The position numbers and the translations under genes are program-made. This document shows positions 1-6,464 of a stretch of 34,276 nt of DNA, piece after piece (the stretch's first letter is position 1; each line of letters opens with the position of its first letter). Where the stretch lies: positions 1-34,276 of IMG/VR virus record IMGVR_UViG_3300037440_000173; one strand, given 5' to 3'. The stretch comes from a virus. Its lineage: Duplodnaviria > Caudoviricetes. Under the pieces are notes generated by a model. That model worked only from the letters and a program-made list of their open reading frames with translations. It made no database searches and was not told where the DNA came from.

Positions 1-128
1 TTGCTATGGACCGCCACCCGGGCCTCTAAGGGGGGTGCCGCAGAAGGGAAAGCGGCGGGCCCGGGCGGCGGCGTTTGTCGGGGCGGGTGCCGGGAGCTAG
101 GCGAGTCGCCGGCGTCCCACCCCGCCGT

Positions 129-266
129 CTAGGGCGAGGACGTGTATCGCCGTATGCCTATCCAGGTCAGGTGGTGAGAATGCGGCGATGGATCGCTGCA
201 ACCGTCACAACGGCGGAACGAAAGCCGCTGCTTCACCTCGTGGATTAGCCGCCTGATCATTCGCAT
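129..266 (-). CDS. small hypothetical protein, possible Zn-binding (CDGC...HSHH)
   Basis: 3' part of ORF 129..635. ATG at 266 overlaps the upstream TGA (TGATG) and follows an AAGGAG RBS. Confidence 0.55.
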   Translation of the reverse strand: MRMIRRLIHEVKQRLSFRRCDGCSDPSPHSHHLTWIGIRRYTSSP

Positions 267-400
267 CACTTCTCCTTGTGTGAGTCCTCGCGTGGTGTGT
301 CGCCGAACGGGTGCCCGTCGCGGTACGCCAGCGCCACCGCCAGTGCGACAGCGAGCAGGAGCCCGGCGACCACGCCGAGGCCGAACGACACGGCGTTCAC
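266..400 (-). CDS. 44-aa membrane peptide (MNAVSFGLGVVAGLLLAVALAVALAYRDG...)
   Basis: Read by hand, not in the ORF track. GTGA overlap with the stop of 397..660 and TGATG overlap downstream; one hydrophobic helix. Confidence 0.6.
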   Translation of the reverse strand: MNAVSFGLGVVAGLLLAVALAVALAYRDGHPFGDTPREDSHKEK

Positions 401-660
401 GGCGCGGCCTCGTACTTGCGGGCGAAGTAGTCGGGCTCAACGGGCCAGTGGTCGGTAAGGTCGCCGGGGTTGCGGACGATCCAATGCCCGATCGGAACTG
501 GTACCCAGCCCTGGGCTCCGTTCGCACCAGCGCGCAACTCCAGCCCCCATTCGGGTGCTCGCGATCGGATCGGGGCGTCAAACTTGAGGACTGCGCCCAA
601 GTTGTCGCCGGTCCACTGCACGGCTTCGATCTCACTGGGCTTGCTGCGATATCTGTTCAC
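397..660 (-). CDS. phage hypothetical protein (KPSEIEAVQWTG...GHWIVR type)
   Basis: The motif pattern is common in phage early genes; start and stop are coupled to both neighbours. Confidence 0.75.
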   Translation of the reverse strand: MNRYRSKPSEIEAVQWTGDNLGAVLKFDAPIRSRAPEWGLELRAGANGAQGWVPVPIGHWIVRNPGDLTDHWPVEPDYFARKYEAAP

Positions 661-911
661 ACCGTCACCCCTTCCCGCTCGGCGAGCCGTGCCCGCAGCG
701 TCGCGATCTCGAACTCGTACGCCTGGCGCTGCCGGTCAGCCGCCGCCCGCACCGCCGCCAGCTCGCGGTAAAGGTCGGTGCCGGTGATGTAGGCGTCGAC
801 GAGCCTGCCGAGTGCGGCGGCGTGCTCTTCGCGGGTGGCGGTCCAGCCGTGGTCAGTTTGGATGCGCTGGGCGTAGTCGGCGAGCTGGGCTTGCAACTCT
901 TGGCGCGGCAT
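657..911 (-). CDS. hypothetical coiled-coil protein
   Basis: Start reassigned to ATG 911 (MPRQELQ), which overlaps the stop of 911..1324. Confidence 0.65.
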   Translation of the reverse strand: MPRQELQAQLADYAQRIQTDHGWTATREEHAAALGRLVDAYITGTDLYRELAAVRAAADRQRQAYEFEIATLRARLAEREGVTV

Positions 912-1324
912 CAGGCCACCGCCAACTCGGCTGCAGATTGCACCAGCTCGCGGTAGTAGCCGATCAGCTCCCGCCACACGGCAGGCTCGCCGCGCTTGAT
1001 GAACTCGGGCAGGAGCCGATCAGCCCACAGTCCCGAGCCGTCGTAGTAGCAGTCCTGACCGCCGAGGTATGAGCACGACCCATGCAGCCATTCGCCCTCA
1101 TAGGTCGGCGTGAGCCAGTGGTGGCCGACGTCGGACCCGGTCGGGTAGATATCTGCTATGCGCGGCGACATCTTCTCGCCGGGCACCCATCCGGCGCTGA
1201 ACGCGAACTGCACGGCACCATCCGGGCCGGACAGCACGAAGCGGATGCTCATGCCGTGGACGCCCTTGCCTTCGTCGCGCTTGTTATAGCCGGGCTCGAA
1301 GTAGACGGTGCGGCGATAGGTCAT
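911..1324 (-). CDS. phage hypothetical protein (CSYLGGQDCYYDGSGL motif)
   Basis: Clean ORF with a GAAGGGGG RBS and protein-like composition. Confidence 0.75.
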   Translation of the reverse strand: MTYRRTVYFEPGYNKRDEGKGVHGMSIRFVLSGPDGAVQFAFSAGWVPGEKMSPRIADIYPTGSDVGHHWLTPTYEGEWLHGSCSYLGGQDCYYDGSGLWADRLLPEFIKRGEPAVWRELIGYYRELVQSAAELAVA

Positions 1325-1343
1325 CGGTTCCCCCCTTCTTGTG

Positions 1344-1436
1344 TCAGGTCGGCCAGGTCCAGCCGGTGATCCAGGCGAGCAGTTGCGCGGCGAGCACGGC
1401 GGCCACGGCCAGCGGCGCGAACGGGCGGCGGGTCAC
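1344..1436 (-). CDS. 30-aa membrane peptide
   Basis: GTG at 1436 overlaps the upstream stop; hydrophobic stretch FAPLAVAAVLAAQLLAWITGW. Confidence 0.5.
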   Translation of the reverse strand: MTRRPFAPLAVAAVLAAQLLAWITGWTWPT

Positions 1437-1651
1437 GACTCGTCCTTGTACTGGAAGATGTCCTCGCCGTACGGCACGAACTTCACGGTCATCTGAAAGC
1501 CGATCGCGTACCGCAACGCCTCGATCTCGGTGGCGAACACCCGAACGGAAGACCCGTCGTGGTAGAGCGCGACCCACGACCCGGTCCACTTCTCGGGCTC
1601 AAGGTCGACGCCCAGGCGCCTCAGCGCGTAGCGCACGTCCTGATCGTTCAT
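1433..1651 (-). CDS. hypothetical protein (MNDQDVRYAL...)
   Basis: ATG at 1651 with GAAGGGGAAG RBS and ATGA overlap. Confidence 0.7.
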   Translation of the reverse strand: MNDQDVRYALRRLGVDLEPEKWTGSWVALYHDGSSVRVFATEIEALRYAIGFQMTVKFVPYGEDIFQYKDES

Positions 1652-1761
1652 ATCTGCTTCCCCTTCGGTTTCGACGGCGGCGGGATCGGCTTGGACGGCG
1701 GCGGTTTCGGGTGCGGACGGCCGTCGATCGGCGGCTTGGGCTTGGAGCCGTTTCCACTCAT
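1648..1761 (-). CDS. 37-aa Pro/Lys-rich peptide (MSGNGSKPKPPIDGRPHPKPPPSKPIPPPSKPKGKQI)
   Basis: Fills the gap exactly, with ATGA overlaps at both ends. Confidence 0.5.
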   Translation of the reverse strand: MSGNGSKPKPPIDGRPHPKPPPSKPIPPPSKPKGKQI

Positions 1762-2960
1762 GGCTGCTCCACCTCGGCATCGGTCGTTTGGGTATCGGCC
1801 GCACCCTGGCCGAGGTGGATGTCTCTGGCGGCCCGCCATAACTGCTTCAGCAGTTCCTTGCTGACGATGCGCAGCGCGTCGGCGTGGCGGTGCGCATCGG
1901 ACCATGGCGAACCGGGCTGTGCGGGTTTGCCGGACGGTCCACAGCGGACGCATTCGGTGGCGTGGGCGCGGCCTTCGGTGGCGGCTTTCCGCTTGTCGTA
2001 GGTTTCGCGGTTGCCTGCTTTGAGCATGGAGCCGGCGATGTTCCAGGCCCGCATTTTGGCGGTGCTGGACCAGTTGGCTCGTTGGCCTTTCTTGCGGCGG
2101 GCAGCGACGTTCGCGCGCTGAGCATCGGTAGTTCTCTGGTCGCTGCTCGCCGCCGCCCCATCGGCGACCGCAGTGTGGGAATCGGAGGCCGTATGGCCGA
2201 CGGGGAGTGTGTGCAACCCGCAGTAAGCCCACAGCTCGGACACGGTGCGCGGGCGGTCGTGCAGATAGTTCCAGTACGGGTCGCCGATCGCGGCGAGCAG
2301 CCGGGCGGCCTGCTTCTCCCCGACACCCTTCTGCGCTTTGACCCACGGGCCGAGCGGGTGCCGCCGCATGGCGCGTTGCAGGTTCAACGTCGCCTCGTGC
2401 TCGAGGCGGGCGAGCCCGTCGACGATGTTGGCGAGCCGGGCCACGTCGGGGTGGTCCTCGGTGAGTCCGAATCCGCGGACTTCGCCGTCCTCGTCGGGTT
2501 CGTCGCGGGTGAGTTGGCGTAGTCGGTTCTCGTTGGCGATGCGGGTGCGTTCGAGGTCGTCTACGACGTCGGCGGCGAGGGCGAGGGTGGGATCAGCCAG
2601 CGCAACGTCAATGGGCGTCGGCAACGTCATGGCTGACTGACCCTGCTCGCCCGCCGAACCCGGCGAATGGGCATTGGGCTGCGAAGCATGTATGGCCGGG
2701 TCGGCGGTGTCCGTGCCCCCAACGGCGATTCGTGATTGGTCGTCGACAGGGCGATGGCCGTTAGGGGAGTCTGGCGGCAGCGGCGAATCATCCTTGGGTT
2801 CCGGTTCAACGATGGCCGCTGCCGTGTCTTGTGCCCGAACCGGCGGGTGTTCCATGGATGCGGCAGAACCTTTGGCCGGCTCGGGAGCCTGCTCCGGGCC
2901 GACGTCGACTCCTTGGTCATCGGCATGACGATGGCCGGCCCGGAAATCTGTGGTGGTCAT
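1758..2960 (-). CDS. IS110/IS116 C-terminal (Nop-like) domain protein without RuvC; candidate nuclease-less Tas protein. Conserved part starts at ATG 2630.
   Basis: Coiled coil DDLERTRIANENRLRQL, HhH-like KGVGEKQAARLLAAIGDP, SELWAYCGL, RRKKGQRANWS and terminal HADALRIVSKELLKQLW. No DEDD RuvC domain. Associated with dual-spacer repeats. Confidence 0.8.
   Translation of the reverse strand: MTTTDFRAGHRHADDQGVDVGPEQAPEPAKGSAASMEHPPVRAQDTAAAIVEPEPKDDSPLPPDSPNGHRPVDDQSRIAVGGTDTADPAIHASQPNAHSPGSAGEQGQSAMTLPTPIDVALADPTLALAADVVDDLERTRIANENRLRQLTRDEPDEDGEVRGFGLTEDHPDVARLANIVDGLARLEHEATLNLQRAMRRHPLGPWVKAQKGVGEKQAARLLAAIGDPYWNYLHDRPRTVSELWAYCGLHTLPVGHTASDSHTAVADGAAASSDQRTTDAQRANVAARRKKGQRANWSSTAKMRAWNIAGSMLKAGNRETYDKRKAATEGRAHATECVRCGPSGKPAQPGSPWSDAHRHADALRIVSKELLKQLWRAARDIHLGQGAADTQTTDAEVEQP
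1768..1819 (-). ncRNA. TIGR-like unit at the 3' end of the Tas-like gene
   Basis: tccacctcgg CCA gggtgcggc CG atac CCA aacgaccga TG ccgaggtgga, with a perfect 10-bp stem. Confidence 0.8.
2094..2205 (-). ncRNA. two intragenic TIGR-like units
   Basis: 2156-2205: ccccgtcgg CCA tacggcctc CG attc CCA cactgcggt CG ccgatgggg. 2094-2153: ...gcagcga CCA gagaactac CG atgc TCA gcgcgcgaa CG tcgctgc... Confidence 0.8.
2651..2944 (-). ncRNA. tandem array of five stem-loop dual-spacer units (TIGR-like guide array)
   Basis: Units at 2893-2944, 2834-2885, 2775-2824, 2716-2767 and 2651-2707. Each has a 9-13 bp stem closing CCA-N9-CG-N4-CCA-N9-CG (one unit has CC for the first CG). Period is 58-62 bp. Confidence 0.85.
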
Positions 2961-3406
2961 GCGAGGTCACCCACCGTCTGCTTGCGGGACTTCTTCAGCA
3001 GCGCGGCGAGCGAGTCCCACTCCTCGGCCTTAGCCAGCAACCGCGCCGCCTGCTCCCGGTCCATCGACGCCTGGAACAAGCAGTCGTCCACCGTGAAATC
3101 ACGTAGCAGCTTCTGCCCGTCCGCGGTGCCGTACCGCTGGTTCAACTGGCGGCGCCACCACTCGCGGATGCCGTCCCGCTTCTGCGACTTGTTCCCCGGC
3201 TTCCCACCGCCCCCGCCGTCGCTGATGGATGGGCGCATGGTTGCGAAGCGGACCCGGACGAACTCGGTCAACGCTTCGATGAACGCGCCCTCGGTGTGCT
3301 CGTCGGGGATGCGGGCGCGGACCTCCTTGGCCACCTGTTGGTGGTCGGTGAGGTTGGTCGTGTGGTGCACCTCGCGGACGAGGGCGGAAAGATCGAACTG
3401 TGTCAT
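2957..3406 (-). CDS. hypothetical helical protein directly upstream of the Tas-like gene
   Basis: GAGGAG RBS; the stop overlaps ATG 2960. Confidence 0.8.
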   Translation of the reverse strand: MTQFDLSALVREVHHTTNLTDHQQVAKEVRARIPDEHTEGAFIEALTEFVRVRFATMRPSISDGGGGGKPGNKSQKRDGIREWWRRQLNQRYGTADGQKLLRDFTVDDCLFQASMDREQAARLLAKAEEWDSLAALLKKSRKQTVGDLA

Positions 3407-3426
3407 GGTGATCTACTCCTAAGTGG

Positions 3427-3687
3427 TTAGGGCCGAGCCGACGACGGATGCATGGATAGCGGTGGCACGGTGGTCGGCTCGGTGGCCGGCGGGGAAGTAG
3501 TTCCGGTGATGCGGCGAGCGAACGGCAGCAGCATCACGATGTAGAGCACGTCAGGGTCTTCGTCATCCAGTTCGCCGGCCTCGTATGCGCAGAGGAATTC
3601 GGCCAGCGACATGCCGAGTAGCTCGGAGACTCTGCGCTCGACGAGCGCCTGCCCCTCCTCCGGGCTGAGTTCCACAACGCCGCTCAT
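3427..3687 (-). CDS. hypothetical protein (LGMSLAEFL..YEAGEL)
   Basis: ATG at 3687 overlaps the HTH gene stop, with a GGAGG RBS. The C-terminal tail is encoded by a repeat unit. Confidence 0.65.
   Translation of the reverse strand: MSGVVELSPEEGQALVERRVSELLGMSLAEFLCAYEAGELDDEDPDVLYIVMLLPFARRITGTTSPPATEPTTVPPLSMHPSSARP
3433..3482 (-). ncRNA. isolated TIGR-like unit
   Basis: ccgagccga CCA ccgtgccac CG ctat CCA tgcatccgt CG tcggctcgg, with a perfect 9-bp stem. Confidence 0.8.
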
Positions 3688-3887
3688 GCCGACTTCGCCT
3701 CCTGCCGCTGGCGCCGGAGTTGCCACAGCTCGATCTCTGTCGGGTCGTAGACGTAGGCGCCGGTCTCGCCTGGGAGCTTCATCGCGGGCAGCTCGCCCGC
3801 TTCGGCCATGCGCTGAACGGTGCGAATGCTCTTGCCGAGCATCGTGGCCACCTGTGGCGAGGTAAGCAGTTGGCGTCGTTCGGTCAT
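3684..3887 (-). CDS. HTH DNA-binding protein (excisionase/Cro-like, HTH_17 type)
   Basis: LLTSPQVATMLGKSIRTVQRMAEAGELPAMK; first gene divergent from the repressor. Confidence 0.85.
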   Translation of the reverse strand: MTERRQLLTSPQVATMLGKSIRTVQRMAEAGELPAMKLPGETGAYVYDPTEIELWQLRRQRQEAKSA

Positions 3888-3894
3888 GTCAGCT

Positions 3895-3924
3895 ATCTTG
3901 CTACGTATGTCGCAGCCGCGTCAA
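3895..3924 (-). promoter_or_regulatory. leftward early promoter, probably giving a leaderless transcript
   Basis: TTGACG-N18-CAAGAT, 7 nt before ATG 3887; no SD. Confidence 0.6.
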
Positions 3925-3960
3925 GTGCTCAAGACCACAAACTTTCGTGTCCTGTGGGTA

Positions 3961-3990
3961 TTGACGCAACTGCGCCATGCAACGTACGGT
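3961..3990 (+). promoter_or_regulatory. repressor promoter, probably giving a leaderless transcript
   Basis: TTGACG-N18-TACGGT, 6 nt before ATG 3997. Confidence 0.65.
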
Positions 3991-3996
3991 GAACAC

Positions 3997-4389
3997 ATGA
4001 CGGAGCTACTAACGCATCAGCAGGGCGTGATTCCGCCATGGACGCAGGGGTGGCGCCTACAGCGCTCCCTCGCGCACGCGGGCATGACGACTGAGGACAT
4101 GGCCGACGAACTCGGCGTGGCTCGGTCGACCGTCAGCCGCTGGTGCAACGACAAAGGGCGGCCAACTAAGGGCTACCTCAAGCTGTGGGCACTGCGAACG
4201 GGCGTCTCGATGGACTGGCTGACCGAATCGAAGCTGGATATACCCGCTCGAAACAACCTATCTGCTGGTATACCCGTTCAACCCGCGACTCCCGGTCACG
4301 CCATCATCGACAACGACATCACCCGCCGGATGCGTAAGCGCATCCCGCTGAACCCCGCGCTCGCGCTCGTCCTGAGGATGGCGTCATGA
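3997..4389 (+). CDS. immunity repressor (XRE HTH)
   Basis: IPPWTQGWRLQRS...DMADELGVARSTVSRWCND...LKLWALRTGVSMDWL, typical of actinophage repressors. Start reassigned to 3997. Confidence 0.85.
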   Translation: MTELLTHQQGVIPPWTQGWRLQRSLAHAGMTTEDMADELGVARSTVSRWCNDKGRPTKGYLKLWALRTGVSMDWLTESKLDIPARNNLSAGIPVQPATPGHAIIDNDITRRMRKRIPLNPALALVLRMAS

Positions 4390-4628
4390 TTCGCGCTCTC
4401 TGGGATCTCGTTCGCAACCCGCCACTGGAGTTCGTCGACTTCGTTGACGATGAAGAGACGGTCGTAGACCGCTTCACCGTCACGCGACGCGAGCGGCTAG
4501 AGATCATGAAGCCGCATTGGTGGTACACCACTCTGGCACGAGAGCTGCCCTGTGGCTGCACCCGCCGCTGGTGGGGCAGGTTCACGCTCTACAACGCCGC
4601 ATGCCAGAAGCACATGGAGATGCCATGA
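4386..4628 (+). CDS. hypothetical protein
   Basis: ATGA overlaps at both ends; CGC and C..H residues. Confidence 0.6.
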   Translation: MIRALWDLVRNPPLEFVDFVDDEETVVDRFTVTRRERLEIMKPHWWYTTLARELPCGCTRRWWGRFTLYNAACQKHMEMP

Positions 4629-4864
4629 CCGAGGACAAGTCCATGACGCCGTCGGAGCACTGGAAAGTGCTTGAGAATCCGCGTCAGCTCATCATCCCCG
4701 ACGGGCCGCGCCTCATCAGCTATGAATTCCCGTTGCGCCCCAACTTAACAGTGAACCTGTGGTTTCCCGATGACATGACCGAGGCGGACGCGGAGCGCGT
4801 TGCTGCATTCGTGCGCGCTCTGGCTATTCGGCCCACCCCGGCATCCCCCGAACGGACCATTTAG
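4625..4864 (+). CDS. hypothetical protein (YEFPLRP...DMTEADAERVAAFVRAL)
   Basis: ATG at 4625 overlaps the previous stop. Confidence 0.65.
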   Translation: MTEDKSMTPSEHWKVLENPRQLIIPDGPRLISYEFPLRPNLTVNLWFPDDMTEADAERVAAFVRALAIRPTPASPERTI

Positions 4865-4867
4865 ATC

Positions 4868-5821
4868 ATGACCGGCGATCTTGCTCTTCCAACAATCCCA
4901 AGTCAGGAGTATGGTCACGCGAATCTTGGGGGGGCCGAGACGAACGGCCAGGGGGAAGCGGTGTTCGGGGGGCACGACCACACCGAGACATGGGCGGCAG
5001 CCATCGACGGCTGGACCACCTCACTACGAGTCAGCAAGTCAGCCACCACGATCCGCCAGCGCCGCTGGCAGCTACGTAAGCTTGCCGAGACCTACCCGCG
5101 GCGGAACCCGTTCAAGCTGAACCTGGACCAGCTGGAGGAGTGGCTGGGCGGGCAGGACTGGAACGCCGAATCCCGCAAGTCCGCCCGCGGTGCGGTCAGG
5201 TCGTTCTACGGCTGGGCGGTCAAGACCGGCCGGGCCAAGCGGAACCCGGCGGAGAAGCTGGATCCGATCACGGTGCCGCGGCGGCTGCCCCGCCCCGCCT
5301 CTGATGCGGTGCTGCTGGCCGCGCTCGACGGCGCCGATGATCGGCTGACGTTGATGCTGCTGCTGGCGGCGCAGGGCGGGCTGCGGGTGCACGAGATCGC
5401 CGGGCTGCGCTGGGACAGCATCGACGGCGACTGGCTCATCATCCCCGGCAAGCGGGGCACCGAACGGCGTGTCGGTATCGCGGCTCGGCTGGGTGCCGCG
5501 CTGACCGCGGAGCAGGCCCGCCGTGCCTCTGGCCACCTGGGTTCGGGGTTCCGGTACGGGCTGGGCGACCCCGACGTGTTCGTGTTCCCCGGCAAGCGCG
5601 GCGGCATGACCCCCACGTGGGTGTCGTCGCTGATCTCGGCCGCGCTCGGCGACGGCACGACGCCGCACCAGTTGCGGCACCGCGCCGCCACTCACGCGCT
5701 GGACGAGACCGGCGACCTGGCCGCGGTGCAGGACTTCCTCGGCCACGCCAAACCTGAGACCACCCGCATCTATGCACGGAGCAGCGACCGCGCCCTGCGG
5801 CGCGTCGCCGACTCGCTATAG
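4868..5821 (+). CDS. int: tyrosine integrase, short type with no obvious arm-binding domain
   Basis: Catalytic set R (GLRVHE), K (GKRG), HxxR (HQLRH), H (LGH) and Y (TRIY); SAM-like core-binding region. Start uncertain. Confidence 0.93.
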   Translation: MTGDLALPTIPSQEYGHANLGGAETNGQGEAVFGGHDHTETWAAAIDGWTTSLRVSKSATTIRQRRWQLRKLAETYPRRNPFKLNLDQLEEWLGGQDWNAESRKSARGAVRSFYGWAVKTGRAKRNPAEKLDPITVPRRLPRPASDAVLLAALDGADDRLTLMLLLAAQGGLRVHEIAGLRWDSIDGDWLIIPGKRGTERRVGIAARLGAALTAEQARRASGHLGSGFRYGLGDPDVFVFPGKRGGMTPTWVSSLISAALGDGTTPHQLRHRAATHALDETGDLAAVQDFLGHAKPETTRIYARSSDRALRRVADSL

Positions 5822-5824
5822 ACC

Positions 5825-5894
5825 CCTGCCGGCGGGAAGGTGTTCCCCGGCCCGCCGGCAGGCCAAACCCAGGGGAACGCAGAAGGGGAACACC
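5825..5894 (+). promoter_or_regulatory. 12-bp hairpin whose loop is complementary to the downstream RBS
   Basis: Stem cctgccggcggg/cccgccggcagg; loop GGTGTTCCCC is the reverse complement of GGGGAACACC at 5885-5894. Confidence 0.55.
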
Positions 5895-6464
5895 ATGAGC
5901 ACCATCGATCTACCGACATCCGAACCCGAGCACTCGCAGCGCAAGCCGCGCCGCTGGCCGTGGATCGTCGGCATCGTCGCCGCGCTCGTCGTCGGCGCCA
6001 CCATCGGAGCGGCCGGGCAGACCGAGCCGGAGGTCACCCAGGCCAGGATCGAGACCGTCGAGGTCGACAACCCGGACCTGCAGCGACAGATCGCCATGTT
6101 GGAGTCCCAGCTCGCCACGGCGGAGTCGAAGGTGGCCGAGCGGGATGAACTCGAGACCCGTGCGGCCGAGCTCGACGCGCTGGCCACAGAGTTGGAGGCT
6201 CGCGAAGAGGCGGTGGGAGCGGCCGAGGAGACCAAGGCCGCGAACACGATCCCCGGGCCTGGTATCTATGTCGTGGGCGAGGACATCAAGCCGGGCGAGT
6301 ACCGCACGACCGGCGACGACTGCTACTGGGCGCGCTTGTCGGGGCTTTCTGGCGAGTTGGATGACATCATCGTCAACGGGTTCGCTGACGGCCCGGCCGT
6401 GTTGACGATCGCCAAGTCTGATGTGGCGTTCGAGAACAGTTGCGGTGAGTGGGTGCGTCAGTGA
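5895..6464 (+). CDS. membrane-anchored coiled-coil protein with a C-terminal extracellular domain
   Basis: TM WPWIVGIVAALVVGATIGAAG, coiled coil, then IPGPGIYVVGEDIKPGEYRT..CYWARL...CGEW. Start reassigned to 5895. Confidence 0.8.
   Translation: MSTIDLPTSEPEHSQRKPRRWPWIVGIVAALVVGATIGAAGQTEPEVTQARIETVEVDNPDLQRQIAMLESQLATAESKVAERDELETRAAELDALATELEAREEAVGAAEETKAANTIPGPGIYVVGEDIKPGEYRTTGDDCYWARLSGLSGELDDIIVNGFADGPAVLTIAKSDVAFENSCGEWVRQ

Follow-up and report, generated by a model that had tools for sequence, protein, structure and literature searches.

The locus considered here raises the question of how a single stretch of DNA can be both a protein-coding sequence and an array of RNA guides. The window, by which we mean the whole stretch of 34,276 nt that was analysed (positions 1 to 34,276 of IMG/VR virus record IMGVR_UViG_3300037440_000173), has on its minus strand an open reading frame with hairpin units embedded in frame. 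A first-pass annotation proposed that guides had colonised a dispensable loop of the encoded protein, that the mRNA is therefore both message and guide precursor, and that processing of the guides would destroy the message and give built-in negative autoregulation. Three questions follow from that proposal: (i) whether the units are guides, or instead protein sequence that happens to look like hairpins; (ii) whether message and precursor are the same transcript, and if so whether the protein limits its own synthesis; and (iii) which DNA the guides recognise.

The phage and the surroundings of tasA

The 34-kb contig that makes up the window comes from a temperate tailed phage (67% GC; estimated completeness about 66%) and carries genes for terminase, portal, capsid and tape measure, as well as integrase, cI-like and cro/xis-like genes. 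The ORF of interest, tasA, lies in an operon downstream of the cro-like gene and near cI and the integrase gene. Directly upstream is a companion gene of 149 aa (2957-3406, minus strand; PHROG 4604), which has no assigned function and is translationally coupled to tasA: the tasA start codon overlaps the companion stop codon by 4 bp (ATGA, 2957-2960). In 87 of the 91 loci having enough flank, tasA is directly preceded by a homologue of the companion gene; an Atlas search with the companion gene gave no usable match. At its other end, the tasA stop codon overlaps the next ATG (1758-1761), which starts a 37-aa Pro/Lys-rich ORF (1648-1761, minus strand); a peptide resembling this ORF occurs as a C-terminal fusion in the tasA homologue P0005. 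About 23 of the 25 GTDB matches of tasA, judged by title, are in actinobacterial genomes. Because tasA relatives are found mostly in actinobacterial genomes and actinophages, the host of the phage is probably an actinobacterium.

Identity of the TasA protein

As judged from its sequence, the ORF at 1758-2960 (minus strand) is a nuclease-free TIGR-Tas protein, TasA, for which RNA-guided DNA binding is predicted. The protein is 400 aa long and consists, in order, of an N-terminal extension of guide units (approximately aa 1-120), a coiled coil and Nop domain, a wedge-loop insert and a C-terminal tail. The NCBIfam model TIGR_Tas (NF052498) matches it with 233 bits, the cut-off being 100, and the match covers residues 126-379 only; a sequence search of the PDB returned two matches only, to TasR (9MTY, E 1e-7) and TasH. 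When an AlphaFold model of TasA (mean pLDDT 87) was submitted to Foldseek, the top 10 of 170 matches were TasR or TasH (TM 0.56-0.61); IS621 ranked lower in that list, with TM values of 0.43-0.47 for IS110/IS621. The W203/K211 unwinding pair of SpTasH aligns with W306/K314 of TasA, such that the aromatic-basic pair on helix 4 is present. No HNH or RuvC domain was found in TasA, a Pfam search being without a match and the N-terminal 110 aa being the guide array itself. A C-terminal Tyr/His processing loop is also absent; the tail of 25 aa past the last conserved Trp contains no Tyr and is mostly guide unit.

Some further features of the protein may be mentioned. In an alignment of 51 relatives, His223, Cys227, Cys230 and His247 never vary (core residues 223-247; window 1930-2000, minus strand), and this His/CxxC/His insertion in the TasA clade of the window is likely to bind metal. 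An alternative tasA start at 2630 is less likely, as that position is inside guide unit U6 and the Met is missing in P0002-P0008.

The first-pass annotation had invoked IS110 recombinases, placing their catalytic serine in the loop that follows the AYxGL motif. In IS621, S241 is indeed found in a loop, one that links helices 3 and 4 (Hiraizumi et al. 2024, PMC11208158). An IS110 recombinase identity for TasA itself was rejected because there is no match to an IS110 model, no RuvC/DEDD domain and no Ser among the invariant loop columns. The TasA insert aligns between residues 211 and 219 of TaTasR, within the limits that Xu et al. give for the wedge (G210-K230; bioRxiv 10.64898/2026.09.09.750476); according to Faure et al. 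(2025, PMC12045711), the wedge of TasR separates the DNA strands. In the TasA model, the loop is of low confidence (pLDDT 52-67, core residues 141-180) with flanking strands at 141-144 and 173-176.

Guide units in the window

Ten stem-loop TIGR units are located at 1768-3482 on the minus strand, nine of them inside the tasA ORF: the N-terminal extension has six, the wedge loop two and the C-terminal tail one. In the two loop units and the unit of the tail, a first stem arm leads into CCA (box C), followed by 9 nt, CG (box D), 4 nt, CCA or TCA, 9 nt, CG or TG and the second stem arm. The units have the two spacers of 8-10 nt, the succession of box C (CCA) to box D (UG or a variant) and the 9-nt loop that are the marks of TIGR units, with box D being mostly CG. 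Palindromic stems of 8-12 bp are present on every unit in place of edge repeats, as in the stem-loop TasA subtype. A search of the window for the pattern of boxes and stem gave nine matches between 1778 and 3473, every one of them on the minus strand. When a stem of at least 8 pairs was required, the strict core likewise occurred nine times on the minus strand and never on the plus strand, and none of 100 resamples of the window under a first-order Markov model contained it. Successive units are spaced 57-63 nt apart.

U0 (3433-3482) alone lies beyond the tasA ORF, upstream of the companion gene. U1 (2892-2945) is the first past the tasA start codon and is followed by U2 (2834-2885), a variant with one extra base before spacer A and a 3-nt loop linker, which was recognised by eye and is missed by the strict pattern (folding z -3.3). 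U3 (2775-2824), U4 (2716-2767) and U5 (2650-2707) continue the extension in frame, and U6 (2590-2643; spacer A 2621-2629, spacer B 2603-2611) is the last of it. The wedge loop contains U7 (2156-2205; spacer A 2185-2193, spacer B 2167-2175) and U8 (2094-2156), in which the second box C is TCA, and U9 (1768-1819) encodes the C-terminal tail. The earlier annotation had reported the two loop units (2094-2205), lying in frame between LWAYCGL and RRKKGQRANW, and the unit of the C-terminal tail. All three agree base for base with the minus strand, the translation given for the loop is correct, and the third unit does encode the tail; the coordinates were exact, but seven units had been left out, namely the six in-frame units at 2590-2945 and the one outside the ORF at 3433-3482.

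By folding energy, the z-scores are -2.4 for U8 (2092-2156) and -4.2 for U9 (1766-1822). For the U7 region (2153-2208) the energy alone gives no significance (z-score -1.36, with 15 of 200 shuffles equally stable), and the U7 call rests on the motif. A CUU motif at the stem's base, which Xu et al. describe as frequent though not universal, occurs in none of the nine window units scored, which have variants such as CUC, AUU or CAU in its place; among the relatives it is present in 150 of 651 units. A repeat finder applied to positions 1-6000 did not isolate the units because their stems and spacers differ from unit to unit.

Variation of the wedge loop and turnover of spacers

If the loop units are guides, homologous loops might be expected to differ by whole units. 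We measured the loop as the distance from LWxYCG to NW in 120 listed of 2,551 homologues. All 120 fall into length classes of 13 aa (6 homologues), 17-23 (4), 33-39 (5), 47-53 (88), 70-73 (8), 87-96 (8) and 112 (1), with a step of about 19 aa, corresponding to 0-5 units per loop. The loop therefore varies by whole in-frame units of about 57-60 nt, as the first-pass annotation had anticipated, and not around a fixed length. At the DNA level, parsing succeeded for 128 of 170 loci; none of the 38 loops of at most 22 aa contains a unit, and longer loops contain up to four, with some units escaping the strict pattern. The distance from one loop unit to the next is a multiple of 3 in 59 of 62 cases. 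Relatives with zero units have PGQRR-like turns at this position. One zero-unit relative is a contig (run X4) joined across 2078-2217 with 36 other bases, and in P0041 the insert is missing as a clean 34-aa gap relative to the window TasA. The proposal that the loop is dispensable thus stands for the insert, which natural relatives do without, but not for the wedge itself, since 13 residues with conserved flanks are always kept.

The spacers turn over within otherwise stable proteins. P0002 and P0003 are identical at 102 of 106 flanking residues (96%), yet share only 3 of 12 and 1 of 12 spacer residues, and three Gordonia phages have like stems with unrelated spacers. Such in-place swaps between 96%-identical proteins bear on how TIGR arrays gain new spacers. 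At another locus (L096:9795-9930), three adjacent units have half-guides in common, one of them consisting of its left neighbour's spacer B and its right neighbour's spacer A, the pattern that slippage duplication would give.

Translation through the guide arrays

Across 113 non-redundant loci (128 minus 15 duplicates), 483 of 651 units are inside the tas ORF, and every unit is outside it in 6 loci. Units within the ORF are not placed at random with respect to reading phase. Of 134 loop units, 130 share one phase. For N-terminal units the three phases are used 149, 8 and 158 times, versus 62, 50 and 56 times for units outside ORFs. The rare phase thus accounts for 8 of 315 N-terminal units, compared with 28% expected from stop codons alone, and a unit in that phase is found in 6 of 84 loci versus 52.6 expected, a comparison in which the loci are related and so not independent. 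Read in the avoided phase, the units would give 27% Arg and 19% Pro, from codons that are rare in these genes (CCA 9%, CGA 8%). In the N-terminal arrays of L101, L102, L104 and L116, the phases alternate regularly (2-0-2) at spacings of 58, 59 or 60 nt, and the Arg/Pro phase is always skipped.

Among 72 loci with at least three units, the frame that stays open longest upstream is that of tas in 56 (median 132 codons, versus 20 and 40 for the other frames). In 49 of 53 loci with at least three N-terminal units, the start codon is in a 4-bp overlap with the stop codon of the upstream ORF, as it is in the window locus. Because of these start overlaps and the avoidance of the Arg/Pro phase, the comparison of sequences indicates that translation through the guide arrays is under selection and that the dual coding is real. 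The phages Bethlehem (L177) and Buttons (L181) have intergenic units upstream of a gene with its own ribosome-binding site.

Predicted targets of the guides

The predicted target of a guide is 18 bp long and consists of spacer A followed by the reverse complement of spacer B, as we interpret the C-5 rule and the 8-nt 3′ overhang described by Faure et al. (2025, PMC12045711). U7, U8 and U9 have no exact target in IMG/VR (0 each). Pooling 634 guides against 2.04 Mb of related loci gave one exact and four one-mismatch matches, versus 0 exact and 2-9 one-mismatch matches in controls, which is no excess. The one exact match, of a guide in L106 (1001-1032) to L118:995-1012 in the gene just downstream of tas, is within chance for 634 guides. 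Spacers A and B are near-identical in 9 of the 634 guides, giving palindromic targets, where the rough expectation is about 2.

The predicted target of U6, which is near-palindromic, has 12 exact matches in IMG/VR. Six are in the anticodon arm of tRNA-Gly(GCC) within phage tRNA clusters (L326, L327, L328, L329, L331 and L334), and the other six are outside tRNA genes; the guide was singled out post hoc for its near-palindromic target, and the match count has no palindrome-matched control. The tRNA-Gly of mycobacteriophage ET08 differs from the U6 target at 2 of 18 positions. As a host tRNA, the target has no exact match in 401 Actinomycetota genomes; in 251 Actinomycetes there were 0 exact and 9 one-mismatch matches (control 5), none of them annotated as tRNA-Gly. 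When the guides were compared with 173 tRNAs, they matched no better than in the reversed geometry. Targets shaped like an anticodon arm are predicted for 8 of 798 guides (6 independent), versus 0.72 in shuffles and 3 in the reversed geometry. A second guide with such a target has two IMG/VR matches, neither of which is in a tRNA. Among the tRNA-bearing phages, searches for host markers found no WhiB or Lsr2 (5 records searched for each), and the polymerase region was without a DNA match.

We regard the match between U6 and tRNA-Gly as a lead: according to Xu et al. most TIGR targets are unknown, and this match offers a candidate for a natural one, which would point to competition between phages. 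There is about an even chance that interference with competing phages is what the guides are for, a role that one guide supports. A role mainly in silencing genes of the host or promoters of the phage itself, or in aiding the integrase, is the less probable reading but a possible one. Such functions are among the possibilities named by Xu et al. and by Faure et al. (PMC12045711), and the position of tasA downstream of a cro-like gene and near cI and the integrase gene would suit them. Against this, the nine guides have no self-target with up to two mismatches in the window in either geometry, the contig being about 66% complete, and six guides of a Microbacterium prophage have no target with up to one mismatch in 2.8 of the 3.9 Mb of the host genome.

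Message and guide precursor

Under the explanation that we strongly favour, a temperate phage carries here a stem-loop TIGR-TasA module whose array lies in frame within tasA, and a single early-operon transcript likely serves as both message and guide precursor. In this scheme, host RNases would trim the hairpins that TasA binds and protects, and the resulting hairpins of roughly 50 nt would be loaded into a TasA dimer. By analogy with relatives studied by others, the complex of TasA and guide would then bind its 18-bp DNA target and block transcription without cutting. A transcript cut into guides would be lost as a TasA message. The guides occupy what appear to be three sites in the protein that tolerate disorder, the N-terminal tail, the tip of the wedge hairpin and the C-terminal tail, presumably because ribosome coupling then remains unbroken through the compact operon. 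Coupling of this kind could account for selection on translation in the absence of feedback. Counting against this explanation as a whole are the blank target searches for U7, U8, U9 and the pooled guides, and the lack of the CUU processing motif of Xu et al. before the window units scored.

The alternatives differ in what they make of the hairpins within the coding sequence. That the insert is a protein-first loop or a decayed guide remnant, with only an incidental resemblance to hairpins, has very little left in its favour: U7 alone folds no better than shuffles, but the idea is already refuted by the intact C and D boxes, 9-nt spacers and stems, by the unit-wise loop lengths, by spacer codons with an entropy of about 3.6 bits next to constrained box positions, and by the zero-unit relatives. 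The same evidence upholds the earlier reading of the loop units as guides. It is also improbable that promoters inside tasA drive the guides, such that message and guides would be separate RNAs that do not compete. Xu et al. explicitly leave this possibility open, as they do not distinguish precursor processing from internal promoters; in the window, however, the units are 57-63 nt apart over three sites, which leaves little conserved room for promoters, and a search of 1400-4400 for promoter and terminator consensus sequences found none, with 0 sigma-70-like promoters versus 0.4 expected (a weak test for actinobacteria).

More serious, though still doubtful, is the possibility that TasA binds the hairpins of its own mRNA and causes cleavage or stalled ribosomes, and that negative autoregulation is the reason why the guides have stayed in the coding sequence. 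Consistent with it are the inclusion in the ORF of nine of the ten window units and of 483 of 651 units in the 113 loci, the need for TasR in guide accumulation (Faure et al. 2025, PMC12045711), the precedent of TnpB, which cuts its own mRNA into a guide (Nety et al. 2023, PMC10278001), and a link between maturation and translation suggested by Xu et al. On the other hand, Xu et al. describe stem-loop Tas proteins as being without the Tyr/His processing dyad, with the processing seen in E. coli probably due to a host RNase, and the C-terminal tail in the window has no Tyr. Moreover, in some loci every unit is outside the ORF (6 of 113; Bethlehem and Buttons have intergenic units), and TIGR-TasA therefore works without the in-frame layout. 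True negative feedback, which would need a TasA-dependent cut or a ribosome block, is not required by the data, and the built-in autoregulation of the first-pass annotation is so far not supported. Joining the two ideas, TasA would throttle its own translation through the hairpins of its message, and the guides released would be directed against rival phages, with the tRNA-Gly(GCC) gene of large tRNA-carrying phages as the target of one guide. We consider this combination unlikely; if true, it would amount to a silencer acting between phages that limits itself and has a named natural target, which has not yet been reported for TIGR systems.

Relation to known systems

The in-frame intragenic layout of guides has already been reported for TasA in the preprint of Xu et al. 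(2026), who describe stem-loop arrays 5′ of, 3′ of or inside tas, in disordered regions and with the frame intact, and also repression of transcription by TasA. In B. longum, they found wedge-loop guides (two, according to the legend) by small-RNA sequencing in RNPs. BlTasA resembles the TasA of the window in being a nuclease-less Nop protein with stem-loop guides upstream and within the coding sequence, two tigRNA regions overlapping the wedge loop. The window locus differs in having nine of ten units in the ORF, 4-bp coupling at both ends, a box D that is mostly CG and no CUU before the stems scored. In the main text of Xu et al. we found neither the phase avoidance, the coupling frequency nor the unit-wise loop steps, and the string "autoregul" is absent from it; a literature search on TIGR autoregulation or tRNA-gene targets found no paper, and the supplements of Xu et al. 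may hold more. What the present locus adds is quantitative support for selected dual coding, in the form of unit-wise loop growth, phase avoidance and 4-bp coupling.

Other systems share parts of this organisation. PlTasA (Faure et al. 2025, PMC12045711; Guan et al., bioRxiv 10.64898/2026.08.11.744272) is alike in its stem-loop units, two 9-nt spacers, box C/D motifs, lack of a nuclease and aromatic-basic unwinding pair; however, its 13 units are described as three subarrays split by intergenic DNA, and the invariant His/CxxC/His insertion sets the window's clade apart. In TnpB systems the message also doubles as precursor of the omegaRNA guide (Nety et al. 2023, PMC10278001), but TnpB cuts its own mRNA and yields one guide, whereas the window TasA has many guides and no known self-processing site. 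The IS110/IS621 bridge recombinases (Hiraizumi et al. 2024, PMC11208158) have a related coiled-coil and Tnp/Nop fold and a split RNA guide; unlike them, the window TasA lacks a RuvC/DEDD domain and a conserved loop serine.

Finally, we note that the same TasA clade is present in 90 of 50,697 GenBank phage records, 83 of which are Mycobacterium phages grown on M. smegmatis, and processing, feedback and targets are therefore testable in a laboratory host. In about 80 other mycobacteriophage records, as in Bethlehem and Buttons, TasA is labelled as a hypothetical protein or transposase.
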